A stretch of 26,099 bases of DNA from an uncultured Thermococci archaeon (GCA_964487115.1 CAZAPD010000049.1:1-26099); one strand, 5' to 3'; counted from the stretch's first letter, positions 5,942 to 22,633 are shown. The notes: a model not told the origin generated them from the letters alone. Translations and numbers: made by a program.

Positions 5942-5974
5942 CCTTCCTCCCTCTTGGTTCGTATTTCAAACCTC

Positions 5975-7210
5975 TCAAAGCTCCTCAACCCTCAACCTTC
6001 CGAACACCAGCTGGGGAAGGAGTGTATCGCGGACCCCCTTCAAAACCATTATTTCCTTCTCGTTGATTATTATCTTCCTGAAGAGCGGCTCAACGAGCGA
6101 GTGGAACTTTTCAAGGATGGGTTTTGGTGGGATCAGTACTGGCATTTGGGAAAAGTTCCTCTGATTTAATTTTGCTTGGACTGCACCAGTAACGTATGGC
6201 TCTATTGGAGTGAATTTCAAATGCAAATATAAATACTCAATGGAAACTCCTCTTCCGGTAATTACATGTACGTGGTTATTTGCCCAAAATTTCCCATGAA
6301 CTAATCTTGAAACTACGAGCCCCCTTTCGTCCATAACTGTCCCGTCTTCTGCTACTAACAGATAAAATCCATCAAAAATATAATCGTCAATATAGTCGAT
6401 TATGCCATTAGCTCCATAATACGGATATGGGCCTTTTCTATTTTGACGTTCTATTTCTGAAAGCGGTATTCGTTTACTATCATGGAATTCAGCAACCTCC
6501 CCAATAGGCTTAACCTCCCACCCCTTCGGAATCTCCATGTCCAGCTCCTCGCTGTAAACGAACTCCTCATCCTGGAACGGCTCAAAATCAATGAACCAGC
6601 TCTTGAATATCGCCATCGCAACCTTCTCTAAAACCTCGTTCTGCTTCCTCTTGTTCTCTATCAAATCGTCGAACCAGGAAAGGGCGGTGGCAATGCGTTG
6701 CTGTTCTTCTGGAGGGGGGTAGGGGAGTAATAAAGTCTCTAAAGCATGCCTATCAACCCTTTGTCTTCCACTTGTCCCCGTCATTGAATATTCAAGAGTA
6801 TCTTTTGGTATTGGATGCCGAAGATAATAAAAGACAAATTTTGTTGAAACCTTGTTATCTCTCGGAATCAGTGAGAAGACTTCAGTAGTAGCAATCCATC
6901 TGTAATTAGAGTTATTTGGAACAATACACATTTTCCCATGTTCAAATGATGGGGTTATCTTGGCGAATAAAATTGAACTTGGAGGCACTTCTATTCCACT
7001 CTTTACCTCATTGGGAGTCCTAAATTCGAATTCTGGAAGTATTCCGTCTACTGGTATCTTCTCCATTGGAATAAACGCTATCGGCTTGTCTTGTCTATTT
7101 TTAGGACGTTTATTTATGAACATAACTTCCTGAATCTCTTTAACGTTCCAATCCTTTGGAATCTCACCGATAGGAGTTTTCTTGAACTCGGTTTCCCATC
7201 TAAACTTCAT
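5975..7210 (-). CDS. hsdS: Type I R-M specificity subunit S
   Basis: Two TRD repeats (GEIPKDW / EIPKGW), PPPEEQQRIA, terminal RDTLLPQLVFG. Confidence 0.96.
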   Translation of the reverse strand: MKFRWETEFKKTPIGEIPKDWNVKEIQEVMFINKRPKNRQDKPIAFIPMEKIPVDGILPEFEFRTPNEVKSGIEVPPSSILFAKITPSFEHGKMCIVPNNSNYRWIATTEVFSLIPRDNKVSTKFVFYYLRHPIPKDTLEYSMTGTSGRQRVDRHALETLLLPYPPPEEQQRIATALSWFDDLIENKRKQNEVLEKVAMAIFKSWFIDFEPFQDEEFVYSEELDMEIPKGWEVKPIGEVAEFHDSKRIPLSEIERQNRKGPYPYYGANGIIDYIDDYIFDGFYLLVAEDGTVMDERGLVVSRLVHGKFWANNHVHVITGRGVSIEYLYLHLKFTPIEPYVTGAVQAKLNQRNFSQMPVLIPPKPILEKFHSLVEPLFRKIIINEKEIMVLKGVRDTLLPQLVFGRLRVEEL

Positions 7211-7715
7211 AGGGCCCCCTCTCCTTCCTGCTAATCTCTTCTACTAGCCAGTTATTAATATCAAGAAGAATCTCATATCCAACTTCCACTAGGTTTTGAT
7301 CCTTCTCAAACGAATATATTTTGTCTCCATGGAAGAGGTTGTTTCTAATCCAGTAAACAGCTTCAATAACATTTTTGTAATCTTCTAGCTCTTCCGCGGT
7401 TAGTGAGCTTCTTCCCCGGTCTCGGCGGGCATTTCTCACATTCCTGATGGGTGCAATCTCCTTTAGCCTCTGTATTTTGTCTCGGGATATCTGGTTTTGA
7501 GGAATTTCCTCTTTTATATTCTCCATAATCTTCCAGTCTCTCAGCCTATATCCATACTTCGCCCGGCATAGTGCATTAAACGCTATATACTCCACCGTAA
7601 ACTTCAGAAATGGATCATCTAACTCCTTGGCAACCTCTCGCCACTCTTTGGCCCTCTCCAGGATGAGGTCCCACGTTCGATCTTCTACTGATCCAGTTCC
7701 GGACAAGGGAATCAC
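7200..7715 (-). CDS. HEPN-domain protein (RxxxxH), putative RNase
   Basis: Helical 171-aa protein with FLKFTVEYIAFNAL and IRNNLFHGDK; overlaps both neighbours, suggesting translational coupling. Confidence 0.75.
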   Translation of the reverse strand: MIPLSGTGSVEDRTWDLILERAKEWREVAKELDDPFLKFTVEYIAFNALCRAKYGYRLRDWKIMENIKEEIPQNQISRDKIQRLKEIAPIRNVRNARRDRGRSSLTAEELEDYKNVIEAVYWIRNNLFHGDKIYSFEKDQNLVEVGYEILLDINNWLVEEISRKERGPYEV

Positions 7716-9307
7716 GCCTCCACGTACACCCGTCTTTTGATTTCCTCTATTATTGCTTTCTTTCTAAGCTTCATGAACGTTTCAATATCATTTCTCAACA
7801 ATGCATCAAGAGCCTCTCTTGGAATTAAATGTGTCCTCAAAATCTCTTCCACCTTTTCCCTTCCGAATTCCGCGATCCTCTCGGAAAAGTACTCAGACGG
7901 TCTCTTGTTACTCTTTGATTGATTTGTGGTTATTATCGTCCTGTTGGCTATCTTATCCTCTTTGTAGATACTCCTCGGAAAGATGTGGTCCACCTGTACC
8001 TTACTGCGATATAACTCAAACTGTGGAGGTTGTCCAGTCTTAAAATCCAAGGCCCCATTTAGCACTATTAAGCTCAAGACTCCCTTAAACATGGCCGAAT
8101 TCATACTTGAAACGTCCAGGTCTATGTCCTCAACCGTAAAACGCTCGATGAACTCGGGTATCTTTCCGTTTTCCACCCACTCTATGAAATCCATGAAGTC
8201 TGAGAAACTCTTTGAGTCTACGGCTTGGTCATACCTCCCCTCGAACACTGTTACCCAGTAAAATGCATCCACCTTTGCATAATTGGCAGGACTCTCCTTC
8301 CGGTTTGTCTTTAGATAGTCTAACATCACAGCTACAGGTACAATGAGCGTTGTATATGGGGCCCACTTCTTAAAGCTCAAAACCCCATAACCGTTTCTGA
8401 TATCGGTAATCCTTCGGTATGCAAGCTCTAATGCCTCACAGGCTCTCCTCCATTCCTCCTCAAAGTTTCCATGGTCCAACTCTAGCAAGTTCTTTCTCCT
8501 TGGTTCCTTTCCCCTGATAAGGGCTATTACCTTAAGTATCCACTCGGGAGGAATAAAGTTTACAAACTCATACTGTTCCTTGGCGTCGTTGAGCATATCC
8601 CTGAGGTTAATACCGTACTTGTACAGTCTCGCAGTTGCTAAATCAAACGTCGATAGTGGCATTCCCGTTTTGTTCAGCCGTTCAAAAGTCTCAACTATCT
8701 TGTCAAGGGACGTATCACTTGGGAGGGTTATCACGTGGATTTCGTATTCCATCACGCTGTTATAGAGTTTGATGAGATCTTTTATGGGGATATCCTCCCT
8801 TCCCTCGAACCTCTCAACCAAGGCCTCTAAGCTTTTGAACTCCGATACCGGGACCATGTACATATTCCTCTTTACTTCTGATAACCTCCTCTTGTCCGCT
8901 GTACTCACCCCAACTATCGCGTCGTCCCATTCTCCCTGAAGGGCCTTCTTGATGTCCACATAGAACCTGTGGGGATACTTTCTGCCATTTAAGGGGATAT
9001 CAGGCGCGTAAAAGGCGTAGAATAGGGCTGTCGTCCTCTGCTGACCGTCCAATAATACCTTCACAGAATAGTGTATCTTGGCATCAGGATTGACAGTTTC
9101 AACGCCTTCAACCAATCTCAATGCAAACGGGGCTTCGTCCCTTGTGGACTCCAAGAACAGCATAGACCCGATGAAGTATCCTCCAAAGACTGATACCAGA
9201 AGTTCCCTAACGTCTTCTGGGCCCCACACAAAGCTTCTCTGGAAATCGGGCAATACTATCTTTCCACCGTGTGTATCTTTCAACAGTTCTCTTAACTTTA
9301 TGCTCAT
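7712..9307 (-). CDS. GmrSD-family protein (DUF262 plus DUF1524/HNH-like), putative type IV modification-dependent nuclease
   Basis: LPDFQRSFVW, LLDGQQRTT, FERLNKTG (DUF262); VDHIFP...N...NQSKSNK at the C-terminus. Confidence 0.9.
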   Translation of the reverse strand: MSIKLRELLKDTHGGKIVLPDFQRSFVWGPEDVRELLVSVFGGYFIGSMLFLESTRDEAPFALRLVEGVETVNPDAKIHYSVKVLLDGQQRTTALFYAFYAPDIPLNGRKYPHRFYVDIKKALQGEWDDAIVGVSTADKRRLSEVKRNMYMVPVSEFKSLEALVERFEGREDIPIKDLIKLYNSVMEYEIHVITLPSDTSLDKIVETFERLNKTGMPLSTFDLATARLYKYGINLRDMLNDAKEQYEFVNFIPPEWILKVIALIRGKEPRRKNLLELDHGNFEEEWRRACEALELAYRRITDIRNGYGVLSFKKWAPYTTLIVPVAVMLDYLKTNRKESPANYAKVDAFYWVTVFEGRYDQAVDSKSFSDFMDFIEWVENGKIPEFIERFTVEDIDLDVSSMNSAMFKGVLSLIVLNGALDFKTGQPPQFELYRSKVQVDHIFPRSIYKEDKIANRTIITTNQSKSNKRPSEYFSERIAEFGREKVEEILRTHLIPREALDALLRNDIETFMKLRKKAIIEEIKRRVYVEA

Positions 9308-9311
9308 AACT

Positions 9312-10991
9312 TCACACCTTCCATCCCAGTTCCCTAAACACTTCCTCCACCTTTTCTCTCAGCCTCTCCTCCTCCTGGAAGAGTTTCGAAAGCTCCTCGC
9401 TGTACTCCCTCATTTTCTCTTCAAACGTCCTCTCGTCGTCGAACTCCAGCTTGACACCCACATACCTTCCAGGGGTGAGCACGTAGTTGTTCTTGGCTAT
9501 ATCTTCAATTGTGGCCACCTTTGCAAACCCTATCTCATCTATCTCGTCCAGTCTGCCTTCTTCAAAGAGCCTGAACTTCTCGACTATCCTCTGAATGTGC
9601 TCCTCAGTCATTACGTTTTGTCTTCTCGAAACCTGTTTGTAGAGGTTCTTGGCGTTTATGAAAAGTACCTTCCCCTTCATGTGCTCGGGTTTCTTCTTTC
9701 TCATAAACCACAGCGAGACGGGTAGTGAAACGTTGTAAAACAGTTTAGGCGGTGCGGCAACTATCCCATAAACGAAGTCTTTTTCCACAAGCTTCTTTCG
9801 TATCTTCCCCTCTACTCCACCCCCTGATAGGGCCCCATTGGCCATTACAAATCCCGTTTTTCCGCTGGGGTTCAGGTGATACAGGAAATGGAGTATCCAC
9901 ATGTAGTTCGCGTTGTTGTCAGGTGGAATAAGGACCTCCTCATCACTAACAATCTTGATTCTCGGGTCATCCTCGCTTATCTTATCTGCTCCCCACTTGC
10001 TATCGTTGAATGGAGGATTCGAAACCACGAAATCAAATCTATCGTGCATGAACTTGTCATCATGGTATGAATCCCCTAATCTGATGTCTCCCTCGGCCCC
10101 TCTTATGGCTAGGTTCATTTTGCATATCTTCCACGGTCCTTCTTTTGACTCCTGGCCGTATATGGCGAGTTTTGTTGGATCTACCCCTTCCCTCTCCAAT
10201 GCTGCAACGAAGAATCCACCGCTACCACATGCTGGATCAAATATTTTGCCCTCCTTCACGTCGAGGATTTCAATGATAAGTCTTGTGAGTGAACGCGGTG
10301 TGTAGAACTCCCCTCCCTTCTGGCCTTCAACTTGGGCAAATTTTCCGAGGAAGTATTCGTATATTCTCCCGAAGAGATCCCTTCCATCCTTGCCCTTCCC
10401 AAAGTCGATATCTGTAAACAGATTGATCAGATATGCCAGGTCATCCGGGGACAGGTTGATCTCAGCGTATCTTTTGGGTATGACGTCGGCCAGCTGATCG
10501 GGATACATTTCTTCAAGGGTTGAAATGGCGTTGTCTATTATCTCCCCTATGTTGGGCTGGTTGGCGTTCTTCTTGAAGTACTCCCATCTTGTTTTCTCGG
10601 GGAGATAGAAAACCCCTGCCTCTATATAATACTCCTCATCCTCAATGGCGGCCCTTCTCATCTCTGGGTCTTCGATATAATCCTCACTCGTGGGATCCCC
10701 AAATCTCTTTTCCAGTTCGGCTCTCCTTCTCTCAAAGGCCTCTGACAGGTATCTCAGGAATATAAGCCCAAGAACTATGTACTTATACTCGTGAACCTCG
10801 ACTTTCTTCCTCAGTTTGTCGGCGGCGGCCCATAACTTCCTTTCAAGCTCGGGCTCCAGTTCATAATACTCTTCAACTTTATCCTTCTTTACCTTCTCAG
10901 CCTTCGATTTCTTTTTCTTACCTTTTACCATCTTGTTCTCCCCTTTCTCCTTCTTGAATGATTGGGAAAGATATTCATCCAGCGTCGGCAT
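9312..10991 (-). CDS. hsdM: Type I R-M methyltransferase subunit M (m6A)
   Basis: LWAAADKLR, GEFYTP, DPACGSGG, NPPFN; probable start is the ATG at 10991 after GGTGG. Confidence 0.97.
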   Translation of the reverse strand: MPTLDEYLSQSFKKEKGENKMVKGKKKKSKAEKVKKDKVEEYYELEPELERKLWAAADKLRKKVEVHEYKYIVLGLIFLRYLSEAFERRRAELEKRFGDPTSEDYIEDPEMRRAAIEDEEYYIEAGVFYLPEKTRWEYFKKNANQPNIGEIIDNAISTLEEMYPDQLADVIPKRYAEINLSPDDLAYLINLFTDIDFGKGKDGRDLFGRIYEYFLGKFAQVEGQKGGEFYTPRSLTRLIIEILDVKEGKIFDPACGSGGFFVAALEREGVDPTKLAIYGQESKEGPWKICKMNLAIRGAEGDIRLGDSYHDDKFMHDRFDFVVSNPPFNDSKWGADKISEDDPRIKIVSDEEVLIPPDNNANYMWILHFLYHLNPSGKTGFVMANGALSGGGVEGKIRKKLVEKDFVYGIVAAPPKLFYNVSLPVSLWFMRKKKPEHMKGKVLFINAKNLYKQVSRRQNVMTEEHIQRIVEKFRLFEEGRLDEIDEIGFAKVATIEDIAKNNYVLTPGRYVGVKLEFDDERTFEEKMREYSEELSKLFQEEERLREKVEEVFRELGWKV

Positions 10992-11103
10992 GAATACCAC
11001 CGAGCGATTTAAGTCTGTACAGAATTGTGTTCGTCTTGCCTTATGAATTTTCCGTATTCATCCCTTTGTAAAAAAAGAAAACATGAATGTGGCCCCTATA
11101 GCT

Positions 11104-11409
11104 CTATGCAATTCCAAGCTTCGGTATCTCGATACTATCCAATTCCTTAAAGGGCCAAAGACTGGCGATATCTCCCTCCCTGTCAGAGATTATAACGCCC
11201 TCCCTAGTGAAGTTAAGGGTCTTAATTTTCCTTCCATCCTTACGGTATATCTCATAAAGAACAGTCTCAATGATTTTTTCCATGAATTGCTTATTCTCTG
11301 CTGTATAATAAAAATGTTCGTTCACGTAAACCCTTAGTATCTCAATGCCCCTCTTTCGCTCAAAGGTATCCAACTTTTCATCCAATCTATCTACCTGTTT
11401 TCCCTGCAT
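11104..11409 (-). CDS. Hypothetical protein, possibly the frameshifted C-terminus of the upstream nuclease
   Basis: 101-aa ORF overlapping the upstream ORF by 23 nt in the +1 frame. Confidence 0.5.
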   Translation of the reverse strand: MQGKQVDRLDEKLDTFERKRGIEILRVYVNEHFYYTAENKQFMEKIIETVLYEIYRKDGRKIKTLNFTREGVIISDREGDIASLWPFKELDSIEIPKLGIA

Positions 11410-12244
11410 GAAACCAGATATACACCTTCCTGAATCCTGAGCCGTATTTCAGAGCTTCAACATTCATCTTGTGTTGTAAATCCGCCTTATTTTCACAAAA
11501 GAGTGCCCATGCTATCTCTATTAGGTTTTTACTATACTTTCTTTGTTTTTTGCCTGGTATTATTCCATCGTTCACCTTGGAAAGGATAATGTCTACACCC
11601 TCATGGCTGAGGGTTACCATTAATTTTTCCGCCTGCCCTTCTACGTCATATTTACCGGAATAATGCTCCCAGAAATTTTTGAGCTCAATCGCAATAAGTG
11701 TTTTATCGCTCCAATCTATTATGAGGATGTCCGCTATCTTATCGGCATCGGATTTTCTACCTCTATTTGAGTCCTCTGTTCCTGGCCTTGTTCGTATCTT
11801 GTATATAGGAAGTACAAAGATATCCCTCCCCAGTTCCCTGTACTCTTCCAGCACTTTTTCTAAGCTCTCGTAAACAAGATCTTCTAGGAACCTCCCCTTC
11901 CAGAACGCCACTTTGCTGTGGGGAAGTTCTCCGCTGGCAATCCGCTTTGCTAGGGCTTCGTAAAATTTTCCCTCTATCTCCGAATACATGTCCAGGATAT
12001 CGTTTATGTAACCGTACATAGTTTTCTCATCTTTTATTCTCACTCCCATATCGGGCTCTGCCTGAAACGCTTCTATCATCTCCTCCGTTAGCCTTCCCTC
12101 TTTTAGCATTTCCAACATCGCATGAATGAACACATCCCAATACTCAAATACTGAATGCCTGTATCTCTTCTTAATACACTCTTCCAACTTTGCCCTACTA
12201 ATTTTTCTACCCTTATTCTCAACTAACATTAACTCCTTAACCAT
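11387..12244 (-). CDS. PD-(D/E)XK nuclease-family protein
   Basis: KGRFLEDLV...IADILII...IAIELKN pattern; GAGGTGG RBS. Confidence 0.7.
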   Translation of the reverse strand: MVKELMLVENKGRKISRAKLEECIKKRYRHSVFEYWDVFIHAMLEMLKEGRLTEEMIEAFQAEPDMGVRIKDEKTMYGYINDILDMYSEIEGKFYEALAKRIASGELPHSKVAFWKGRFLEDLVYESLEKVLEEYRELGRDIFVLPIYKIRTRPGTEDSNRGRKSDADKIADILIIDWSDKTLIAIELKNFWEHYSGKYDVEGQAEKLMVTLSHEGVDIILSKVNDGIIPGKKQRKYSKNLIEIAWALFCENKADLQHKMNVEALKYGSGFRKVYIWFHAGKTGR

Positions 12245-12948
12245 ACTACCACCTCAGGAAAGAGTTCTCAAGAAACGGGGGCCTTTGTGTCCTGTTTCAT
12301 TACCCTGAGATTTTGAACCTTTGAGAATTTTATTTAATTAATAAGATTCATTAAACCACTAAGAACCTAGTTAGACACCTTGAGCATCTGTCACTCGTTC
12401 TCTTCCCGTTTTTAGAATTAAAAGGAAAGGAAACACAGGGTGCAAGGTTGGAATGATTTAGAAGGTTAAGTTAATGTTAGAAGTGTTGTGTTTGTAGGAT
12501 TGTTGATATTGTTAGAGTTTGATTATTTTTGTCCCCCATATATAATATAGGGAAAACTATGTAAATTAGCTAATTTTTAATTTTTGTTACCTTTAAATGC
12601 TTTATGGTTAGAATAGGTATGTTAGTTATTATTTCTCAAATATCCATTACATAATTTGTTATAAAACCTTAATATTCGTACTCATACCCTTCACAATAAC
12701 ATAACCCCTTACTATCTACCCCCCTTTCACTCTCTCCTTCAATAATAATACATCAAATACATACTATCCTAACCTACTCATACACTTATACATACTACCT
12801 ACTACTCTCTCTTAATCTCCCTATCTTTCTATCAATACTCAACACTCACATGGAGATATGTTTCAAAATGGTATATACCGAATGGGAAAGATAAAAACGG
12901 CAGATAGACCCTCAATTAAACGATTAAAAGGGAGGGGAAATTTGGAAT
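12245..12948. other. AT-rich non-coding region with opposing C-free and G-free tracts, possible relic origin
   Basis: No C in 12444-12532 and no G in 12679-12851. Confidence 0.45.
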
Positions 12949-13791
12949 TCAAAAAACAACCTTATTCCCCAAGATTTCTGAGAGTGTTGGGTTTAATGAT
13001 TTTTCAAGGTACTTATACGAGCGGGCGTATTCTCTTTTAGCCTGGTTAAATAGATCTAGATAGTGGATACTCATTATCGAACCTGTTGAGTGGCCGACCA
13101 TGTATTTAACCACGCTTTCTGGAACTCTTGCTTCAAACATCTTGTTTATGAACCATTTTCGGGCGTACTTGAGGCGAACCCCTTTCCTTTTGGAGAGGTA
13201 GGAACGTAGAGTTACGTATGTGGTGTTGGGGAATGGTTTGAGGAGCGAGGCAATATAGGGGGGCATAAAAGCCACGAAGGAGTTTTTGGTTTTTCGGGTC
13301 CATGAAAGTTGATAGTATGCAATGGTGGTTCCATTCACTCTTTCTGTCTTTAAGCGATTCTCATCAAATTCTGTTACTATCTTCAACGCCTCCTTTATCC
13401 TTATACCTCCAAAAACTACCAACAACGCAACTAACAATGCGTCCTCTCTCTTGCTAACGGCCTTAATCCAACTTTGAATCTCTTCGTTCGTGGGGAAATA
13501 CAAATCCGGTTTGGACTCGTGGGTTCGTAAGAGTCTCTTCAACTTAATGGCTGTCTCCTCCAACATCCAGTCATTTTCTAGGTAGAAGTTTATCAGGTTC
13601 CTTATGGCCAAACTCAGGTGATGTCTCCCTACCTTGGTATTGTCCATCAACCTTCTCAAATCTTCAATGCTCCAGATTTCTGTATCCCCAAAATATCTAT
13701 CCAAGGAAGAGATATACTTCCTTCTTGTTTCCTCTGTTACTCTATTCTCTAGCCATTTAGTGAATTCTTCCCTAACAGGCCTGTATATCAA
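12949..13791 (-). CDS. int: Integrase C-terminal fragment Int(C), archaeal SSV1-type tyrosine recombinase
   Basis: GGIRIKE (R), RKTK (K), LKYARK (KxxR), MVGH and HY (catalytic Tyr); abuts the right att site. Confidence 0.93.
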   Translation of the reverse strand: MIYRPVREEFTKWLENRVTEETRRKYISSLDRYFGDTEIWSIEDLRRLMDNTKVGRHHLSLAIRNLINFYLENDWMLEETAIKLKRLLRTHESKPDLYFPTNEEIQSWIKAVSKREDALLVALLVVFGGIRIKEALKIVTEFDENRLKTERVNGTTIAYYQLSWTRKTKNSFVAFMPPYIASLLKPFPNTTYVTLRSYLSKRKGVRLKYARKWFINKMFEARVPESVVKYMVGHSTGSIMSIHYLDLFNQAKREYARSYKYLEKSLNPTLSEILGNKVVF

Positions 13792-13802
13792 AATTGGAGC
13801 CG

Positions 13803-13860
13803 CTGGAGAGTCCGTGGGCGTCCAGCCCGCCAGGGTTCAAATCCCTGCCCCGGCGCCAAA
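13803..13860 (+). repeat. Right att site, partial tRNA-Ser copy
   Basis: 58-bp identity to 1643-1700. Confidence 0.97.
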
Positions 13861-14070: not shown

Positions 14071-14745
14071 TTAAAGCTTTTTCTGCTCGATTTTTTGTTT
14101 TTCATTGAGTAGTTCTAGTATCTCCTTAAAACTACCCTCTCTTTTTACAATCGCTGAATGGGAAAAAACTATATTTTTGCCAATTTCGTACTTGCCGCTT
14201 TTAATGATTTCTCCCATTTCTTTCAATAAGTGATCCATTGCAACATCCCCTTTCAGAGGGGGACCTCTAATAGTCTTCGCAGCTTTTACTCTCCCCTCTT
14301 CTATTTGGAGACTCCAAGAAATCTCGCTGTTATGAACTATTAATTCACCGTGATAAGATTTCAGTAGCTGGAGAATTTCTTCAAGGTTTTCCCCAGGTAT
14401 TTGGTCAGGAGGAGTATGTAACTTAAACCGTGCTTTAGGATAATCTCGGAAGATAGAATTTACAGGATATTCGTATATTTCTACTGCTGTTACCTTTCTG
14501 TGTCGAGAAGCAGTGAGGATCTCATCCAGAGCCTCTCTTCCTTGGAAAACTTTGTTGTCTGAGTGATGCTCGACTATTAGACCTACTATTTCGTGATTAG
14601 ATACTAGGATATAGCCTGTTTTCAATTCTTCATTGTCCCTCCATGAAGCTTTTAAATACCCCTCATATACCTTGCTTAAAAGCCCCTCCACGTTTTCGTA
14701 GTCAGGGATTACGGATATAAATTTCCCAGGTAGCATGCGAAGCAC
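14071..14745 (-). CDS. DUF2226-like protein
   Basis: LPGK..., GYLKAS...GYILVSNHEIVG, and a second similar module (IEEGRVKAA...LKGDVAM); sits beside a roadblock gene. Confidence 0.6.
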   Translation of the reverse strand: MLRMLPGKFISVIPDYENVEGLLSKVYEGYLKASWRDNEELKTGYILVSNHEIVGLIVEHHSDNKVFQGREALDEILTASRHRKVTAVEIYEYPVNSIFRDYPKARFKLHTPPDQIPGENLEEILQLLKSYHGELIVHNSEISWSLQIEEGRVKAAKTIRGPPLKGDVAMDHLLKEMGEIIKSGKYEIGKNIVFSHSAIVKREGSFKEILELLNEKQKIEQKKL

Positions 14746-14772
14746 CCCCGATAAACAAAAAGAAATAAATTT

Positions 14773-15126
14773 TTAAAGCATTGATGCTACTTTCTGTGCG
14801 TTTCTCTTTAGATAAATCCTAACCAGACCCAGATTGACTTTCGGGTCGGTGAGGACTGTGAGAACTGCGTTTTCCCCGGCCTCGACTGTTATTATTTTCC
14901 CCTTGGGCGATTCGAGCGTCACCATGTCAACTGCTTCCTCATGAAAAACTTCATTGCTGACGTTTAGAGATGTGCCGTAAATTGTGGCCACCATAGCGGA
15001 AGTGCTTTCCACGTCAATGGTTCTATCACTAGCCTGCCCTTCAATGAGGAGGCCATCCTTGCTGACTATCGCAACTCCTTTGACTCCATCGACCCTGAGA
15101 AGGTCGGCTATAACATTCTCAAACAT
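14773..15126 (-). CDS. Roadblock/LC7 (MglB-like) domain protein
   Basis: VDGVKGVAIVSKDGLLI...SAMVA...NLGLVR; GGTGA RBS. Confidence 0.92.
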   Translation of the reverse strand: MFENVIADLLRVDGVKGVAIVSKDGLLIEGQASDRTIDVESTSAMVATIYGTSLNVSNEVFHEEAVDMVTLESPKGKIITVEAGENAVLTVLTDPKVNLGLVRIYLKRNAQKVASML

Positions 15127-15132
15127 TTTTCA

Positions 15133-15615
15133 TCACCCCAGTATCAGCATATCAACTTCTACGTGCTTATCTGAAACGCGGATCCCCTTTATAAGGGTGT
15201 TCTTCCCGCTAAACTTCTTTATGGCAGCGGCAATGGCGTTAGCCATTGGATATAGGACTGGCTTCATACCTTTCTTTTCTAACAACTGGAGAGAATAGAG
15301 ATCCATTGGATTATTAAGTTTGAGTGTTACTTTATTTCCCTGAACGTCGATTTCACCACTTTCTGCAAATCCAAAAGTGTTAATCATGACTTCTGTGAAC
15401 CTGTTTAAGAGTTCTTGGGGATCGTCGCTACCTTCAAAATTGAGGCCGTATTCTTCGACCATTGTGTTTAATACTTCCTCTCCAATGGATGTTCCTAATC
15501 CCCTGGCACCGGTTCCAAGGACTTTGTATATTCCATAAAGTATCAGGTTATTTACTTTTGTTGCCATTTCTTCTGACCTGTCTTCCATCCTTTTCACGAC
15601 CTTCGCCTCCGTCAT
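15133..15615 (-). CDS. V4R/H-NOX-like ligand-binding protein (hypothetical)
   Basis: Alpha/beta pattern LGTGARGLGTSIGEE...FGFAES...VTLKL; GGAGG RBS before the ATG at 15615. The longer ORF-track start is unlikely. Confidence 0.55.
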   Translation of the reverse strand: MTEAKVVKRMEDRSEEMATKVNNLILYGIYKVLGTGARGLGTSIGEEVLNTMVEEYGLNFEGSDDPQELLNRFTEVMINTFGFAESGEIDVQGNKVTLKLNNPMDLYSLQLLEKKGMKPVLYPMANAIAAAIKKFSGKNTLIKGIRVSDKHVEVDMLILG

Positions 15616-15915
15616 CAGATGCATCCTCCCAAGTGGGCTGCTATCTGAACAAAAAAGTGATTTTTTTTTGAGTATATAATTTTTTCTCTTCAACTTTGGG
15701 AGATATGCCCTTAAAAGTAGGTACAGATATAATCGCCTAATTTAGCATATAGGGGACAATTTTGAGTATTGCTATTTTTCTTTGTTTTGTTTGTTGAACA
15801 GTGTGGTACCTATTATCAGATTATAACACCTAGATTTTTATGTTTTCTTGATTCAAAACGTTTAAAAGGAGGAGTATCATCATGATACCATCAAGTTTGG
15901 TTGAGGTGTGGTAGG

Positions 15916-16281
15916 ATGGGACTTTTGAAGAGGATAAAATCACTTTTTAAACCCGAAAATGAAGTCGAACTCGAAGATTTTAAAGAAAGAATTAAACGGA
16001 AATATGGGTTTATGGATTTTATTTATGTTACTAATGAAGGGCTTCCAATATTGGGGACGTTCTCCAATTGCGAAGAATTTTCTGCTAAAGTTCCTGAACT
16101 GTTAAAGATCCTCTCTCAATTTGTGCTGTCTGAGCATTATATAATAATTACTGAGGGGAGTGTATATAATATCATTGTTATTAACAAGGAAGTGGTTTTT
16201 ATCGGGACAAGTACCCGTCCCCTCTCCAAAGAACGAATAGAAAAACTTGTCAATGAAACAAAAAGAGAGTTGAACATATAA
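15916..16281 (+). CDS. Divergent roadblock/profilin-like protein (hypothetical)
   Basis: GFMDFIYVTNEGLPILG resembles the roadblock beta-hairpin; GAGGTG RBS; TTTAAAA box near 15861. Confidence 0.55.
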   Translation: MGLLKRIKSLFKPENEVELEDFKERIKRKYGFMDFIYVTNEGLPILGTFSNCEEFSAKVPELLKILSQFVLSEHYIIITEGSVYNIIVINKEVVFIGTSTRPLSKERIEKLVNETKRELNI

Positions 16282-16479: not shown

Positions 16480-16735
16480 TTTTTCTCCCAAAGGGATATA
16501 TTTGGCAATGAGATCTCATATCTTCCTCACCCCTACCTCGTTTCCTCCATCGCCGATTCCTGTGCTGAATATTCTCAACTCTCTCGCTCTTTCAATGATC
16601 CAGTCAAAGGTTTCTCTTATTATCTTCATACCATTTCATAGAGTAACAGCTTTCGTCTAGGGCTTTTCTTGGTGTCCCAATAGCAATTATTAGGGAATAA
16701 TCAGCAATTCTTGGGTCTCTGACAAACTTGATGCT
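16480..16735 (-). pseudogene. Remnant of a DUF4392 / D-glutamate cyclase-like gene
   Basis: DYSLIIAIGTPRKALDESCYSM, then a frameshift, then ...FDWIIERARELRIFSTGIGDGGNEVG (16560-16537 encodes GIGDGGNE) and an in-frame stop. Confidence 0.75.
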
Positions 16736-18118
16736 GTCCTCCTCAAGCCTCGCCTGGTAGGCTATCTTCACAGTAAAGCCGTCCTCTATGGACTGCGTTA
16801 TGAAGTACCTGTCGAGGTAGGGCCTATAGCCGAAGGTGGCGTAGGTGTCGCGTCCTTTCTTTGCTATTGGAGTTCCTGTAAAGGCGAAGAAGGACGCGCT
16901 CTTAAGTATCGAGCGCATAGTCGAAGCAAGCTCACCATACTGGGTTCTGTGGCCTTCGTCTATGAGAACCACAACGTCCCTGCGATTCGTTATTGTCTTT
17001 CTTCTCCGGCTTTCCCTCTTGAGCCCCTCCAGCACGTCATTGAGGTCCTCGGTGCGGAACTTGTGAATGAGCGTGATGAACGTTCCCCTCTTTCCATCGG
17101 CGTGGGTTAGGACTTCCTTGAGCTTCTTGATTGAATCTATGACTTCAAAGCTCAGCCCCACAGCTTTAAGCTCGCCGCTCAGCTGTCTCTCAAGTTCCTT
17201 CCTGTCAACGACGAAGAAAATTGTGGGGTTGCCGAGCAGACGCTTGATTTTATAGGCTGAGAATATCATGGTCAGCGTCTTCCCGCTTCCCTGCCAGTGC
17301 CAGATTAAACCCCTGTTTCTTTCCGTCTCGCCCCTCGCGTAGGCCAGAGCGATGCTCACTATCTCCCTAACCGCCCGGTACTGCATGTACCTCGGCAGAA
17401 CCTTGGTAAAGGCTCCACCGCTCTCGCGGTAGAAGGTGAAGTAGCGGAGGACGTCGAGGAGGGTCTCAGGTTTTAAAAGCTCAACCAGGTTGTCCAGCTC
17501 ATCAAAGCTCTCGCCCTTCCATTGATAGACCGGAACACTGCTGAGCCACGGCACTATGGGGAAATAGACGGGTTTATCCCCGACGGCAACGCCCATCTGG
17601 ATATACTTGAAGAGCTCGGGCATCTCCTTCTCGTAGTCCTTAATCTGCTCGTATGCTTTTTTCCAGCTCACGTCCAGCCTTTTGCACTCAATGATGACCA
17701 GCGGAATGCCGTTGACGTAGAGGATTAGGTCGGGTATCTTGGTCTTAAACGGGTAGCCGACCTGGTTGGCAACGAGGAACTCGTTGCTTTGGAGGTTTTC
17801 ATAGTCAATGAGCATCAGCCTCTTGGGCTCACCGGTTTCTTCATCCTTCACGGGAACGCCGTTCTTGAGATAGTCGAGAACCCTGCGGGAGCCTTCAACG
17901 CCGAAGGGACTCGCTTTAAGGAGGTTGATTGCCTCCCCCGCTTCCTTCTCGCTAACTCTGTTTATCCTAACTATCGCATTCTTTAGCCTTGAGATTAAGA
18001 GAGGCTCGTTCTCGTTTTCGAGAACCTCGATGCCCCTCTTATACTTCCAGCCCTCCGATTCCAGCCGCTTGATGATGGGCTTCTCGCACTGGAGGTATTC
18101 GGGGGTTTGAGCAGGCAT
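16736..18118 (-). pseudogene. hsdR: Truncated type I HsdR (nuclease and first RecA domain only)
   Basis: PDLILYVNGIPLVIIECK, HWQGSGKT, DEGH and FTGTP present; motifs IV-VI and the C-terminus absent; AGGTGA RBS before the ATG at 18118. Confidence 0.92.
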
Positions 18119-18203
18119 GAGGGTCACCTGTTTATTTGTAAACATCGGAACCATCAGAGAGGTTGGATGTTTATGATTAAAACAGTTTTCGAAAATTAAA
18201 ACA

Positions 18204-19406
18204 TTAAGCTAATAACTCTGCTAAATCCCATATTAATTCCTGTAACCGCTTTAAATGAGAGGGATACTGATTAATCTTGTCATATATCTCTGAGGGGACA
18301 CATTGTTCCAGAGCGGTCATTATGTCAGTATACGGATCAGTCCTAGCCAACAGATCTTTAATGTATAAACTAGGATTCCCACTTATTTTTTGTTTGATAC
18401 AACGATCTTTTTTCTCAATTTCTCCTAACAACACTGGAAGATTCTCGAATCCGGAAGCCTCGAACAGATATGATATCTTAATTGAAGATACCTCTAGTTT
18501 CTGATGGATGACATCCCTTATCTCTCTTTCAAATCGCTCTCTTTCTTCTTCTGGGAAGATTTGGGGGAAATTCATCAGGTCGCTCTGATATGGGACAGAA
18601 ATTATTATTTTTGGATGATAAGGGGGATTAAATGAGTTCATCCATTGCTGGAGATATTGTTTCTCTGTGGTTCCTAATTGCTTGTACTCCTCGCTATTTT
18701 GGAATCCATTAATTTGTTTGCTTACAAAATCTTTGTATCCAGAGATTATTTGTCTTCCAAGAGCTATTATGTCTGTGTCCTTACCTACAAATATAACAAA
18801 GGAGGACACTCCCTTGATATCGATCCTGTAAACCTTTTGGGTTTGAGATCTGATTTTTAACTCAAAGAACATCTTAAAGAAAGATGTTGGAGGTTTGTCT
18901 AGGTTATGTTTTTTCTGGAGATATTTAGCTATTGCTTGACTGACGTTCTTTTTGTATGTCTCTGTATGTTGACCGGACAAAATACCTTCACCGGATTCCA
19001 TGACTATTACCGCTCTAGTAATTTGAGAAAATATCTCTGTCTCAATTTCCTTTAAGGTTTTAACGCCATGTCGTTCTAGAACCTCAAAGAATATCCTGAT
19101 CCTATCCGAGAATTTAGTTTTGACGAATTCAGTTATCTGCTTTTCAATTTTAAGTTCTTCGTTTTTCAGTTCATATCTCTCCCGTGATATTGCCTTCTCT
19201 ATCCAAAACGCATATGCAGAGAATCCTATAATTGATAACACAAAGAAAAGCATAGCTCTAACAGATGCTAATCCAAACCACGCAAAACTACTACCTATGA
19301 TTAAAGCAAGTATGTCTAATGTTATCAGGAGAGAGTGGACATTTCCTTTTGATATCTGGGCCAAATATTCCAGGACTTTAATAATCCCACCGTTCCAATC
19401 TATCAT
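18204..19406 (-). CDS. Hypothetical membrane protein (two N-terminal TM helices and a large soluble domain)
   Basis: Hydrophobic segments LLITLDILALIIGSSFAWFGL and AMLFFVLSIIGFSAYAFWI; GGTGGAG before the ATG at 19406. Confidence 0.75.
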   Translation of the reverse strand: MIDWNGGIIKVLEYLAQISKGNVHSLLITLDILALIIGSSFAWFGLASVRAMLFFVLSIIGFSAYAFWIEKAISRERYELKNEELKIEKQITEFVKTKFSDRIRIFFEVLERHGVKTLKEIETEIFSQITRAVIVMESGEGILSGQHTETYKKNVSQAIAKYLQKKHNLDKPPTSFFKMFFELKIRSQTQKVYRIDIKGVSSFVIFVGKDTDIIALGRQIISGYKDFVSKQINGFQNSEEYKQLGTTEKQYLQQWMNSFNPPYHPKIIISVPYQSDLMNFPQIFPEEERERFEREIRDVIHQKLEVSSIKISYLFEASGFENLPVLLGEIEKKDRCIKQKISGNPSLYIKDLLARTDPYTDIMTALEQCVPSEIYDKINQYPSHLKRLQELIWDLAELLA

Positions 19407-19430
19407 AATCTCCACCAATGTAAAACCCTG

Positions 19431-19699
19431 TGGGCGGAGGTGGGGGATTCGAACCCCCAACGTCCCTCTGGGGACGAGCAATTCCGGGCAACACTCCTCG
19501 CTCCGGGGATAAATAGTGACTCTCGCTAGTACCTCCGGCCCCAGAGGGCGAGAGCCACTTCTCCGCCCGGGAGGTCGTTGATAAATTTCAGGATTGTCTC
19601 AATCATCGCTATCACCTCCGTAATGGCTTTTATGAGGGCCCATGTAGTTGTTGGACTTGTTGCAACTGACAGAGCGAGGAGCATTGCCACCTGCCCATA
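19431..19699 (-). ncRNA. Predicted highly structured RNA with a tRNA-like 3' end and an internal small ORF
   Basis: 19-bp long-range helix with three G-U pairs, T-arm GGGGG-TTCGAAT-CCCCC, 3' ACCTCCG-C-CCA, and its own BRE/TATA. Confidence 0.65.
19526..19606 (-). CDS. 26-aa peptide MIETILKFINDLPGGEVALALWGRRY
   Basis: Full GGAGGTGAT RBS at 19611-19619, 4 nt before the ATG; an in-frame upstream ATG would give 52 aa. Confidence 0.6.
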   Translation of the reverse strand: MIETILKFINDLPGGEVALALWGRRY

Positions 19700-19725
19700 G
19701 GATAATAAGATTATAATGGGCAAAA

Positions 19726-19742
19726 GTATTTATACTTTTCGT
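19726..19742 (-). promoter_or_regulatory. BRE/TATA promoter for the structured RNA
   Basis: CGAAAAG-TATAAATA on the minus strand, inside the inverted repeat AAAAGTAT-tt-ATACTTTT (19722-19739). Confidence 0.7.
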
Positions 19743-19757: not shown

Positions 19758-21035
19758 CTAGCGTGTGGACATTACCCTCCTCTTTCCAGTTAGCAAGTCC
19801 TTCATCAGCCCGCGCTTCACCCGCTCAAGCTTCTCCCTGCGCTCCCGCAGGAGTTCGAGCTTCCTGTCAACGGTGGAGAGGATTTTGGCGATTTGTTTTT
19901 GCTCCTCAATGGGGAGGAGGGGGATTTTGAACTTTTTAAGATTAGATGCATTTATATTCGCTTGGCTTGCCGCTCTTGTGGCTAATTGACGCAATCTATC
20001 CCCCGCAAAAATTAAGTAAAGCGTTAGGAACATAGGATCAGCTACGTTCAAGTTGGGTTTTAGGCGGATTAGATAAGAGGCAAAGACGTAGTCTCCCTCA
20101 AGCATAAAAACGCCAGTTCTGCCAACCAGTTCATAACTGTTAGTCCTGTTAATTAGAACATCTCCTTTTTCCAGTTTATATTTTCTGAACGTGATCTCAT
20201 CAAGGTCGGTATATTTTAGATTAATTGGCAGGACTTTGCCGTTTAATATGCTATCCATTTTTATGACAGGATACCTGCCGGAGTCCTTCAGCTTGGTGGA
20301 TAGGCCATACTGGAACGAACTAGCAACATCTCCAAGTCTAACAACCCTCCACTCCTCCGGGATCTCGCCCAGCTCGGTCTTCTTGAACCGCTCGTGTCCG
20401 ATGCCCTTCGTTAAAAGTCTCCCCATCAGGCCTTTCTTCAAGCGCTCCGTCTTCTCAATTGCCTCATCGGTCTTCTCGATGACTTCATCAACGGTTCTCA
20501 ATATCTCGGCGATTTTCTTCTGTTCGGGGAGGGGCGGGAGTGGTAGGGGCATATTCAATAAATCTGTCTTTTTGACACTTGCTTGACCTACATATCTAAC
20601 GCATATCTGCCTGAAGTATCCAACTCTCCAGAGTTCCATGAAATAGTACATTATCCACTCTGGAATGACTCGACTAGAATCTACCCGGATTCTTGTTATA
20701 TGGTTACTGTATGTACAAAACTGACACTCGCCGCGGAATATGGCTGTTTTACCGATTAAATCAACACTGTTCGTGTTATTAAACAGTACATCACCCGGCT
20801 TAAGGAGATAATCTTTAATGTTGCTTGGGACTGGAACTTTCAAGTATTCCTTTAGGGTGACTTTGCCCTCGGTAGTGATGTTGTTCATTCTAAGCTGAAT
20901 TATCCCGTTCTCATCACGTTTCCCGCTTGCAAATCCCGGTTTTGCTTCTTTGATAACATCTTTTAACCTTACAACCTCCCAATCCTCTGGAATCTCGCCG
21001 ATTGGGGTTTTCTTGAACTTGGTTTTACCTTTCAT
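19758..21035 (-). CDS. hsdS: Type I R-M specificity subunit S
   Basis: GEIPEDW / GEIPEEW repeats, PPLPEQKKIA, GLMKDLLTGK. Confidence 0.96.
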   Translation of the reverse strand: MKGKTKFKKTPIGEIPEDWEVVRLKDVIKEAKPGFASGKRDENGIIQLRMNNITTEGKVTLKEYLKVPVPSNIKDYLLKPGDVLFNNTNSVDLIGKTAIFRGECQFCTYSNHITRIRVDSSRVIPEWIMYYFMELWRVGYFRQICVRYVGQASVKKTDLLNMPLPLPPLPEQKKIAEILRTVDEVIEKTDEAIEKTERLKKGLMGRLLTKGIGHERFKKTELGEIPEEWRVVRLGDVASSFQYGLSTKLKDSGRYPVIKMDSILNGKVLPINLKYTDLDEITFRKYKLEKGDVLINRTNSYELVGRTGVFMLEGDYVFASYLIRLKPNLNVADPMFLTLYLIFAGDRLRQLATRAASQANINASNLKKFKIPLLPIEEQKQIAKILSTVDRKLELLRERREKLERVKRGLMKDLLTGKRRVMSTR

Positions 21036-22633
21036 TCTAATTCCCCCACTTGACGTTCAATCTCCTTTATCAAAAGCGTCCTCACGGTTTCCAATAGTTT
21101 GCGCACATCACCTTGATTAATGGACTCTCCATGGTGAATAAGATTGTTCCGTTTTCCATTGAGACTTTTAATTGTGTCATAGGCCTCTGTTTTAATAGCA
21201 CCCTGAAGCTCTAGTATTTCCAGCTTTCTAAGTAATTCCCACTTGATTAATTTCTCCAGTCTCTTCTCTGAAAGTTTTTTGCTATCCCATAATTTTTGCC
21301 AAACTAGAGAAACAAGCCTCTCTAATGCTGTCCACCCCATGATAAACGCTTGATTATATTCAGATTCAAGGTAATGTGAGTATGATTCGAGGAAGAACAC
21401 AAGAGAAGTTACCAGATCATCATTCCTCCAAATTTTTTCTGCATATTCGATTGCTCTATTAATTTCTTCTGTACCAAGAATGGGCCGATTATATGGAGCT
21501 GAAAGAATATTCCTATGCACATACCTACGTACTGATGAATATTCTCTTGAAGGCACATGAGACCTAAATAAGTAAATCCTGGGATGATTTTCAGGATTGT
21601 AATAGACTTCTTTCAAATCAGAGAATCGTATCGCAAAGAACTTTAAACCCGCTTTGTTAAAGATTGTTAATAGACCGGCAATTAAATTTAAGATATCCCT
21701 AGCTGTTTCTTTGGAGTTTGTTAAAACTAAAATCTTCCCATCATTATCAACTTCAATATTGATACTCTCAATTTTGAATTTTACCCATGGAACAGAGGAG
21801 ACAACAGGTTTTAATAATACAAGATCCTCAAAAAAGATTATTGGTTTTTCGTATACCCATACAGGTGGATATAAATATGCAGCATATCCAACAAGACGAG
21901 CTCCAGTAAAAGAAAGAGTAATATCGCCATAATTATTCCCGTTTTCGTCCGCTATTTTCTCACTTGCGGAATCCATGTCAAGTAGGGTAGTAATCATGTC
22001 CCTAAATGTTTCGAGAATTTTTTGAATATCCAACTCCGCAATATTTCCATTAAATACTTTGACTATCCCATTTGGTGGAAAAAATACAGAATTTCCACTA
22101 AAATACATAAGATGAGCATCGGATCCCTTAATCTTCCTACCAAAGAGCGGTGAATATCTTCCACTATATAAAAATAGGCTAAGAAATCTGATAAAAACAT
22201 CTGCACGTGTCAGATGTTCGATATCCGGAATCTCAATGCTAACTCCCGCAGGTAATTCTTCAATCATAGATGCATTAAGGAACCTAAGATATGTTTTGGA
22301 GTCCTTAGGAAGTTCTTTTTTCCATTGTTCCTCTCTTTCTAAAATGTTGCCAATTTCTCTTAAGAACTCATAACCTTGGAATGGTCCATAAATTATTATC
22401 TCTTTGTCAGATCTCTCCGGATCATGAGTAATTACTATTATCTGCCACTCGCATGGCTCTTTGATCCAGAAAATCTCTACTTGACAGGGAAATTCAAATT
22501 CCATAATGGATTTCCCAAATGTTTTTGTTTTCCTAAATTTTTCATATTCTTTTCTAAATTCTGTGATAAGCTCAATAAACCATTCTTGCAATTTTTGCCT
22601 CTCTTTTTCGTATTTTTCCTTATGTTCTTGCAT
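21032..22633 (-). CDS. Protein with a C-terminal HEPN (Apea-like) domain
   Basis: AFIMGWTALE...KRNNLIHHG (RxxxxH at about 21134-21151); ATGA overlap with hsdS. Confidence 0.75.
   Translation of the reverse strand: MQEHKEKYEKERQKLQEWFIELITEFRKEYEKFRKTKTFGKSIMEFEFPCQVEIFWIKEPCEWQIIVITHDPERSDKEIIIYGPFQGYEFLREIGNILEREEQWKKELPKDSKTYLRFLNASMIEELPAGVSIEIPDIEHLTRADVFIRFLSLFLYSGRYSPLFGRKIKGSDAHLMYFSGNSVFFPPNGIVKVFNGNIAELDIQKILETFRDMITTLLDMDSASEKIADENGNNYGDITLSFTGARLVGYAAYLYPPVWVYEKPIIFFEDLVLLKPVVSSVPWVKFKIESINIEVDNDGKILVLTNSKETARDILNLIAGLLTIFNKAGLKFFAIRFSDLKEVYYNPENHPRIYLFRSHVPSREYSSVRRYVHRNILSAPYNRPILGTEEINRAIEYAEKIWRNDDLVTSLVFFLESYSHYLESEYNQAFIMGWTALERLVSLVWQKLWDSKKLSEKRLEKLIKWELLRKLEILELQGAIKTEAYDTIKSLNGKRNNLIHHGESINQGDVRKLLETVRTLLIKEIERQVGELE

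Follow-up and report, generated by a model that had tools for sequence, protein, structure and literature searches.

A candidate archaeal RNA element joins a small hydrophobic reading frame to a tRNA mimic in type I restriction-modification loci

The window, by which we mean the whole stretch of 26,099 nt from an uncultured Thermococci archaeon that was analysed, contains a type I restriction-modification (R-M) locus in which a structured element of 271 nt (19429..19699, minus strand; GC 56% compared with 43% for the genome) is flanked by hsdS upstream (19758..21035; Pfam Methylase_S, E 5e-48) and by a gene that we call Y (18204..19406) and hsdR (16604..18154) downstream, all on the minus strand. 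Since hsdR is truncated here (516 aa compared with ~980-1010 aa in most relatives), the element and Y have been retained in a locus whose restriction subunit is incomplete. A sequence-only reading of this DNA had proposed a structured RNA encoding a 26-aa peptide, as a candidate type I toxin-antitoxin (TA) module, and every helix, ribosome-binding site, promoter and ORF that it named does lie on the minus strand where it had been placed. A 533-aa gene between hsdM and hsdS (21032-22633) has a weak C-terminal HEPN match (Pfam E 0.075-4.8) and a PADLOC match to CARF-HEPN (1e-4), and could possibly be a nuclease back-up for the R-M system. Elsewhere in the window, a tRNA-Ser(GGA) gene (1611-1698) has a 58-bp direct repeat at 13803-13860, ~12 kb away, beside which an ORF (12949-13791) looks by eye like a tyrosine recombinase. 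The stretch 2417-13791 appears to be an integrated element with a second type I R-M system, and a gene within it (7712-9307) gives PADLOC matches to PDC-M55C/HEC-05. Between the two R-M regions lies a cluster of small genes (14071-16281), one of which presumably resembles a Roadblock/MglB protein, and more att-like repeats of tRNA 3' halves occur on contigs C5, C24, C31, C35 and C76 of the source genome.

Homologues of the element exist in 13 of 99 Thermococcales genomes, seven of them belonging to a subfamily A and five to a subfamily B, plus one in G057 (G000 denotes the source genome's own copy, other G numbers the genomes compared and L numbers contigs). BLAST over the 99 genomes of the order gave a match in 11, seven of them full (with G000) and four of them short promoter or chance matches, while subfamily B was revealed by inspecting the DNA upstream of hsdR relatives and three further metagenome variants came from pattern scans. 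The G057 element, which is cut by a contig end, was found by a peptide HMM that did not include it (E 1.4e-8). The working set comprises 15 sequences, 12 from genomes and three from metagenome contigs, ten of subfamily A and five of subfamily B; they form about six lineages with 55-73% identity to each other, and a group of copies without Y (G087, G097, G042 and G035) extends over three genera at 83-95% identity. The element was found neither in 34 other genomes of the phylum nor in the viral contigs, plasmids or phages searched. The promoter that had been read at 19742-19726 on the minus strand is present, with a BRE at 19741-19735 and a TATA box at 19734-19727 (together 19727..19741), and transcription is predicted from the spacing to the TATA box to start at ~19704, the archaeal TATA-to-start distance being ~23 bp (PMC4247193, in part). 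A TATA-like box stands 34-39 nt ahead of the 5' arm in all ten subfamily-A sequences and, as read by eye, ~30 nt ahead of it in all five of subfamily B.

The location inside an R-M locus holds for the family as well: in one type I R-M locus, 11 of the 12 complete genome copies fill the slot that separates hsdS from hsdR and are co-directional with these genes, the element of G042 having no hsd gene nearby. Among 20 genomes with a close hsdR family the element is present in 11 and absent in seven, two being not assignable. The elements of G004 and G015 are 92% identical while their hsdR genes are 68% identical, and for G000 and G015 the corresponding values are 62% and 91%. Since element identity thus does not track hsdR identity, the element travels as cassette cargo, as do the PIN and HEPN genes of these slots, and in being shuffled between R-M loci and outliving the loss of the downstream gene it behaves as the self-contained unit that had been proposed. 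On contigs L060-L065 and L091-L102 an hsdM-hsdS-hsdR locus lies beside an oxidoreductase gene or a tRNA-Ser gene and carries variable cargo in fixed slots, comprising PIN-like pairs, nucleotidyltransferase/HEPN-like pairs and membrane genes (labels by eye); this locus appears to be a cassette-shuffling defence hotspot.

The coding capacity of the element is greater than had been recognised. A long ORF (19526..19690, minus strand) encodes 54 aa from a GTG at 19690 or 52 aa from an ATG at 19684, and its product, a candidate membrane toxin, consists of a hydrophobic stretch, a Pro/Asp kink and a second hydrophobic-amphipathic helix. The 26-aa ORF of the sequence-only reading (19526..19606, minus strand) is the in-frame C-terminal half of this long ORF, with an internal Shine-Dalgarno (SD) sequence before its start (19612..19620, minus strand), and what had been taken for a leader of ~90 nt is in fact coding, with a hydrophobic frame that is open and continues in phase into the 26-aa ORF. 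This leader frame is open and hydrophobic in all 15 sequences (mean hydropathy 0.8-2.0, other frames negative) at a shuffle p of at most 0.006 each, the sequences being related and not independent. The long products measure 47-61 aa and contain a transmembrane-level segment in 15 of 15 cases (max KD19 1.5-2.3), the short products in none. Although the 26-aa ORF is present, its peptide, described as amphipathic with a basic tail, has a net charge of 0 and no transmembrane-level segment (max KD19 0.88). Its role as the toxin is not supported across the family either, where the short products reach a max KD19 of -0.3 to 0.9, vary in sequence and, in some copies, carry a frameshift. The notion of a small hydrophobic peptide survives, but as the long frame.

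Further signs of coding are found in both parts of the frame. The spacing from the Leu-Leu codons to the internal start is 75, 72 or 69 nt and always in frame despite indels, and the leaders of G004 and G025 differ by seven synonymous codon changes in the coding frame compared with one each in the other two frames. However, this synonymous bias is uneven, as it is absent between G000 and G018 and between G087 and G042 (leader pN/pS 0.89 and 0.95). The core of the internal SD (GGTG/GAGTG) stands at constant spacing in all 15 sequences and is followed by an ATG or GTG start in 13 and by GTA in two, while the short peptide that follows is not conserved. For the long ORF neither a single conserved start codon nor an SD sequence was found; an in-frame GTG or ATG lies within the first four codons of the element in every sequence, and such starts would be leaderless or short-leader and SD-free, given transcription from ~23 bp past the TATA box. 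We infer that the frame provides a long membrane peptide and also a short ORF for which being translated is more important than the peptide that results. Searches with 12 of the peptides reached no Pfam or NCBIfam cut-off, the best PHROG match had an E of 0.03, and no type I toxin family appeared among the matches listed, short peptides being easily missed in such searches. Gene callers annotate long and short forms as hypothetical proteins, among them WP_157723225.1 of T. barossii, WP_168194708.1 of T. aciditolerans, WP_168188395.1 of T. indicus and AIF69454.1 of Pa. pacificus. Known membrane type I toxins are hydrophobic, shorter than 60 aa and often sequestered at the ribosome-binding site (PMC8309996, in part).

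The RNA of the element is predicted to be strongly folded. A stretch of 281 nt has a minimum free energy of -125.6 kcal/mol (z -5.92; as good in 0 of 200 shuffles), with a z of -6.0 on the sense compared with -4.1 on the antisense strand. Its long helix P2 joins a 5' arm (19670..19688, minus strand), which covers the ATG at 19684 and the conserved Leu-Leu codons, to a 3' arm or anti-leader (19487..19505, minus strand), and consists, as had been described, of 19 bp with exactly three G-U pairs and no mismatch. In nine subfamily-A sequences both sides have changed at 10 of 18 P2 pairs. Over the tested structure in these nine, 94.8% of cells are paired compared with 51-59% when it is slid, and none of 500 shuffles did as well, although the shuffle counts for P2 cannot be read as probabilities because the rows are related. 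The selection at the RNA level that had been suspected from the G-U pairs is thus supported by covariation, and in 15 of 15 sequences G-U pairs make the P2 duplex of the sense strand the stronger one. Between G087 and G042, synonymous Leu-Ala codon changes are matched by compensatory changes in P2. A comparison of homologues, which had been suggested as a check, finds the open frame kept in all 15 sequences and compensatory changes present. In subfamily B, P2 is weak, the duplex lying only 1-2 SD past shuffles and the whole-element z being about -1.

The proposal that the RNA folds back over its 5' translation region also stands, nucleotides 3-18 from the 5' end being paired at 66-89% in 13 of 13 sequences tested (nested model, 37 C). 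The translation start is predicted to be sequestered by cis structure through P2, in subfamily A and more weakly in subfamily B. Two other contacts that had been put forward are present in the source genome but are not supported as traits of the family. The pairing of the 5' with the 3' end around a 2-nt bulge is one of them, since the 3' strand matches the 5' end over all 7 bp in six of 15 sequences and in none of subfamily B. The other is the 8-nt anti-SD complement, whose role as the conserved silencer is not supported, as it is complete in five of 15 sequences and in 0 of 5 of subfamily B. The 12-bp helix P3 exists as described, with one G-U pair; its 5' arm (19548..19559, minus strand) pairs with 19526-19515 and closes a local hairpin of two segments, a and b, that excludes the tRNA-like fold considered below. 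When the 3' piece is removed in the energy model, the 5' region opens modestly (in G000 from 0.14 to 0.28 unpaired) and the internal SD hardly opens.

What had been overlooked is that the 3' end appears to be a tRNA mimic, with a T-arm on a 7-bp acceptor stem. An Rfam search including Hgc, Ssc and other archaeal sRNAs, which had also been suggested, gave nothing at the gathering threshold over the element, the sole Rfam match in the window being the tRNA at 1611-1695. The tRNA-type end was recognised because the best Rfam E-value fell on a tmRNA T-arm. In E-value mode only fragments matched, two tmRNA models scoring the T-arm alone at 15.4 and 10.4 bits compared with a cut-off of 47 bits. The T-arm (19442..19458, minus strand) has a 5-bp stem and a TTCRANT loop and is followed (19431..19441, minus strand) by segment b', the acceptor 3' strand (19441-19435), by a discriminator C at 19434 and by CCA at 19433-19431. 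The acceptor 5' strand, segment b (19531..19537, minus strand), lies in the last codons of the ORF, 2 nt before the stop codon, and the stop codon comes 0-2 nt past b in 10 of 15 sequences. A second helix of 10 bp joins segment a (19539..19548, minus strand) to segment a' (19464..19473, minus strand), which may alternatively take part in a hairpin resembling a variable arm (19475-19462).

In G000 segment b' has three possible partners, the SD, the 5' end and segment b, and it is b that is kept across homologues, with seven of seven pairs in 12 of 15 sequences and six of seven in the rest. Over the 15 rows the acceptor pairs read CG in ten and GC in four at position 1, AT in nine and GC in five at position 4, GC in ten and CG in five at position 6, and TA in seven, GC in five and CG in one at position 7. 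Both sides have thus changed at positions 1, 4, 6 and 7, the change in G065 falling at an unambiguous alignment position, and shuffling gives p values of 0.002-0.04 in 14 rows and 0.13 in one. In subfamily B, b was picked as the best complement in a G-rich window of 12 nt (shuffle p 0.018-0.13). Acceptor position 3 is G-C in all 15, so that the G3-U70 pair of tmRNA is absent. The T-stem is fully paired (5/5) in 14 of 15 sequences, its first pair changing from G-C to T-A in two B sequences, and the 7-nt TTCRANT loop, which fits the TTCRANY pattern closed by G-C, is kept in 14 of 15 and varies only at tRNA positions 57 and 59, the loop of G065 having 6 nt. Seven of seven a:a' pairs form in all 15 sequences once G065 is shifted by one base (p 0.003-0.046), with two-sided changes at helix positions 4, 6 and 7, and this covarying helix would make the tRNA-like end a pseudoknot. 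Since a and b can also pair together, the RNA can adopt either a local hairpin or a tRNA-like pseudoknot that crosses P2, but not both at once.

The resemblance to a tRNA is partial. No D-stem or D-arm was found in the element, nor was a canonical cloverleaf with a conserved anticodon arm, and Rfam gives no tRNA match there. A GG within 10 nt past b, of the kind used by the tRNA elbow, is present in 14 of 15 sequences but missing in G000, and CCA is encoded in seven of ten A sequences, but neither in the other three nor in subfamily B. In a search with a model of the A-type 3' core, tRNA-Leu comes next in rank (23 of 23 lower matches checked), and in G035 and G042 the 3' piece is taken for a tRNA by ARAGORN, whose calls vary among homologues (Ser, Leu, Pro, Glu or none) and need relaxed scores or introns. 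On L061 (9864-9955) and L062 (10146-10237) it assigns a tRNA-Ser(AGA) to the 3' piece, a false annotation of which the element is a source. In the nested energy model the free 3' piece forms b:b' at a probability of at least 0.75 in 11 of 13 sequences, but the T-arm at 0.5 or more in only five of 13; b:b' cannot be scored in the full RNA in this model, because it crosses P2. The source genome encodes RNase P RNA and a PIN_5 (HARP-type) protein. RNase P forms gauge the distance from elbow to acceptor, and PRORP cleaves the pseudoknotted TYMV tRNA-like structure (both PMC10941002, in part). Recognition of the element by RNase P is nevertheless uncertain, because it lacks a D-arm and G000 lacks the GG after b. 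On a metagenome contig of 61% GC, near an operon with a secretion-ATPase-like gene, a mini tRNA-like fold has an acceptor-type stem and T-arm ~20 nt apart (L042:3971-4162, minus strand, and L043:1-191); the L042 fold gave no match to model R1.

Gene Y begins 27 nt past the discriminator and encodes 400 aa, with hydrophobic N-terminal helices, a coiled coil and a mixed alpha/beta domain. A structure model of Y (pLDDT 83) places this domain at about residues 130-276, and E-x-x-E and G-x-S-x-F motifs are conserved. No Pfam match over cut-off, no PADLOC match and no fold match were obtained. Foldseek returned recurring weak matches to class III cyclases, Thg1 and Csm subunits, all at E of at least 0.058, and 26 matches among representative sequences form a family without a name. 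One contig of run X3 joins the end of the element to the hsdR side (window 18144-19427) and skips Y, an arrangement also seen in G035 and G018, the junction being weak as its short side measures 20 nt only.

Taken together, the element is real and conserved, an archaeal RNA in which a small hydrophobic ORF is linked to a tRNA mimic, and its architecture is well supported by comparison in subfamily A and moderately in subfamily B. As to function, we tentatively favour a mobile one-gene cassette, in which a type I toxin-like mRNA, gated by RNase P and tRNase Z, would encode a self-silenced membrane toxin. The transcript would fold such that P2 hides the start of the long ORF, while segments a and b would toggle between the local hairpin and the tRNA-like pseudoknot. 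A ribosome that had started from the internal SD would come to its stop over b and prevent the tRNA-like fold, so that the state of translation would set the fold. Once the tRNA-like fold has formed, a cut by RNase P or HARP between 19538 and 19537 would take away the stop codon and release a tRNA-like piece of ~104-107 nt, which would remain bound to the leader through P2 and a:a' as a built-in antitoxin; a cut by tRNase Z after 19434 would trim the 3' end and uncouple Y. Failure of this processing or loss of the piece, through loss of the locus, virus infection or an RNase that attacks tRNA-like RNA, would allow the peptide to be synthesised and to harm the membrane. Such a release would stabilise or back up the R-M island. 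However, the tRNA-like piece may outlast its mRNA, the reverse of what addiction needs. There is one copy of the element per genome, whereas type I toxins are often present in repeated copies. The position of Y directly behind the element would also fit a leader role. It appears rather unlikely that the element is a toxin-antitoxin or abortive-infection unit made from one transcript, with the RNase P-cut tRNA mimic, still paired to the start region, as the antitoxin and with disturbed tRNA processing or an attack on tRNA-like RNA unleashing the peptide. A virus, a neighbouring PIN or HEPN nuclease or loss of the R-M island may cause such a disturbance. If true, this would mean that archaea have a membrane toxin under RNA control and that a tRNA mimic serves as a sensor coupled to restriction-modification.

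Several other explanations deserve consideration. It is possible, though somewhat doubtful, that the element is a translation-coupled regulatory leader for Y and that the peptide is not toxic. Formation of the tRNA-like fold would then depend on the ribosomes translating the leader ORF, which may sense insertion of the peptide into the membrane, and the fate of the Y mRNA would be set by tRNase Z or RNase P cleavage. Y occurs in six of 133 genomes and in all six directly behind the element, at a distance of 20-45 nt that leaves little space for a promoter of its own; its types track the RNA subfamilies, with 78% identity within A and 25-28% from A to B, and the pair looks ancestral because G035, G018 and L051 keep the last codons of Y. 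The retention of the SD and start of the short ORF without its sequence, and of the stop on b, would fit such a leader too. Yet Y is absent from six of the 12 complete copies, and in the Y-less group, where compensatory and synonymous changes are still seen, the next gene is variously a PIN-type pair, hsdR or none; in seven of 20 genomes the hsdR locus of the same family lacks the element, which also speaks against a leader. The co-occurrence and co-divergence of Y with the element, and the hydrophobic N-terminal helices of Y, could alternatively mean that the peptide is a small membrane partner of protein Y, an inhibitor or activator whose ratio is set by the fold, but this seems improbable, given that the hydrophobic frame is kept in all Y-less copies. 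The classical type I pair of the sequence-only reading, with a toxin mRNA, a separate antisense sRNA and a tRNA-like end that only stabilises or terminates the RNA, strikes us as unlikely. The hydrophobic peptide and the fold-back over its start, together with the element's own promoter and its place among mobile defence-island cargo, are what such a pair would have, but no antitoxin gene was found, and a type I TA module is therefore not established. In eight of ten A sequences TATA-like words do occur on the opposite strand, 38-67 nt beyond the 3' end. However, they are weak, without fixed position and in AT-rich DNA, and were scored with a crude matrix, by which no conserved antisense BRE/TATA at a fixed position was found in the 15 sequences; in subfamily B the words are absent at that distance. 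Moreover, the fold is tied to translation and not simply to protection of the end, because the acceptor 5' strand lies inside the ORF. Since membership of the class would also require an antitoxin and a toxic product, we do not count the element among type I TA systems.

Two readings that start from the tRNA-like end carry far less weight. That the element has no function as RNA, being a decayed tRNA gene, what is left of an att site or a hairpin that acts as a DNA signal of a mobile element, is highly improbable. Integration-derived tRNA 3' fragments are common in Thermococcaceae (PMC9897764, in part) and are found in the source genome too, and the 3' core resembles tRNA-Leu, but the acceptor strand matches no host tRNA and covaries with a segment of the ORF, variation in the T-loop is confined to positions that are free in tRNAs, promoter and frame are conserved, and P2 is stronger on the sense strand throughout; the covariation already largely refutes this reading. 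A copy of a host tRNA was considered and rejected: nowhere else in the genome do the 3' 52 nt have an exact match longer than 17 nt, which corresponds to the T-arm alone, compared with 58 nt for the true tRNA-Ser att repeat. It would likewise be conceivable, but hardly credible, that the element is an archaeal analogue of two-piece tmRNA, with an aminoacylated tRNA-like piece and a coding piece that tags stalled chains with a hydrophobic tag. The acceptor and T-arm, a long P2-like helix, pseudoknots, a frame without a fixed start and C-CCA in seven of ten A sequences all recall tmRNA. Against this, SmpB (PF01668) was found in 0 of 1 own genome, which is 96% complete, by a search whose control was positive in 10 of 14; the G3-U70 pair is missing, the distribution (13/99) is patchy and mobile, ARAGORN reports no tmRNA at default thresholds, and the Rfam matches cover the T-arm only.

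The combination of a hydrophobic ORF with a tRNA mimic appears to be previously undescribed, as no such element is described in Rfam or in the open-access full-text literature searched. None of the 15 anomalies in Table 1 of PMC9897764, the part of that paper considered here, is described as such an element, and the words 'tRNA-like', 'toxin' and 'restriction' are absent from the main text of PMC3124441. Since the element is short and the peptide is annotated in cultured species, the proposals made here are directly testable. If the peptide is toxic, it would extend RNA-regulated membrane toxins to archaea; the 2021 review PMC8309996, in the sections drawn on here, lists membrane type I toxins only in Proteobacteria and Firmicutes and none in archaea. 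If the RNA is processed as predicted, it would constitute a non-tRNA regulatory substrate for archaeal RNase P, HARP or tRNase Z and a new way of tying translation to RNA cleavage.

Several known systems share parts of this architecture. The mRNAs of membrane type I toxins (hok/sok, aapA/IsoA, fst, zorO) also encode a peptide of less than ~60 aa with a hydrophobic helix, have a start sequestered by their own structure, those of hok and aapA being silenced by fold-back, and travel as cargo of mobile or defence regions. The element differs from them in being archaeal, in having no antisense antitoxin that we could find, no family match and a single copy, and in its tRNA-like 3' domain that overlaps the end of the ORF. 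Long and short in-frame products are likewise made from sprG1, which yields two such peptides (PMC8309996, in part). With tmRNA (RF00023; two-piece RF04321) the element shares the upper half of a tRNA without a D-stem, a long helix, pseudoknots and an ORF, but only the T-arm scores, G3-U70 and SmpB are lacking, the distribution is not universal, and the ORF precedes and overlaps the acceptor 5' strand, the strand order in one- and two-piece tmRNA being different. Bacterial Y RNA YrlA similarly has a tRNA-like domain with a T-loop and a long end-to-end stem; the element has an open acceptor end, a coding frame and no Rfam match, and Ro60/TROVE (PF05731) was found in 0 of 1 own genome. As in leader-peptide attenuators and in the arrest-peptide sensors SecM and MifM, the end of a small ORF overlaps a structural switch before a membrane gene, but between subfamilies the C-terminal sequence lacks conservation, a tRNA mimic takes the place of the switch, and the element persists without the gene. 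The att-type tRNA 3' fragments of Thermococcaceae (PMC9897764, in part) share the T-arm, an acceptor strand and residence in horizontally moved DNA, whereas the element has no identity to a host tRNA, evolves by compensatory change and has its own promoter and ORF. The t-elements of plant mitochondrial mRNAs and the TYMV tRNA-like structure (PMC10941002, in part) also carry a mimic of acceptor and T-arm at the end of an RNA, with predicted recruitment of RNase P or tRNase Z, and that of TYMV is likewise pseudoknotted. The element differs from these in that its mimic begins inside the coding frame, so that a cut would remove the stop codon, and in that the released piece would stay paired to the 5' part of the mRNA. 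MALAT1 mascRNA and the Haloferax 5S rRNA leader are further tRNA-like processing signals, and the same differences set the element apart from them.
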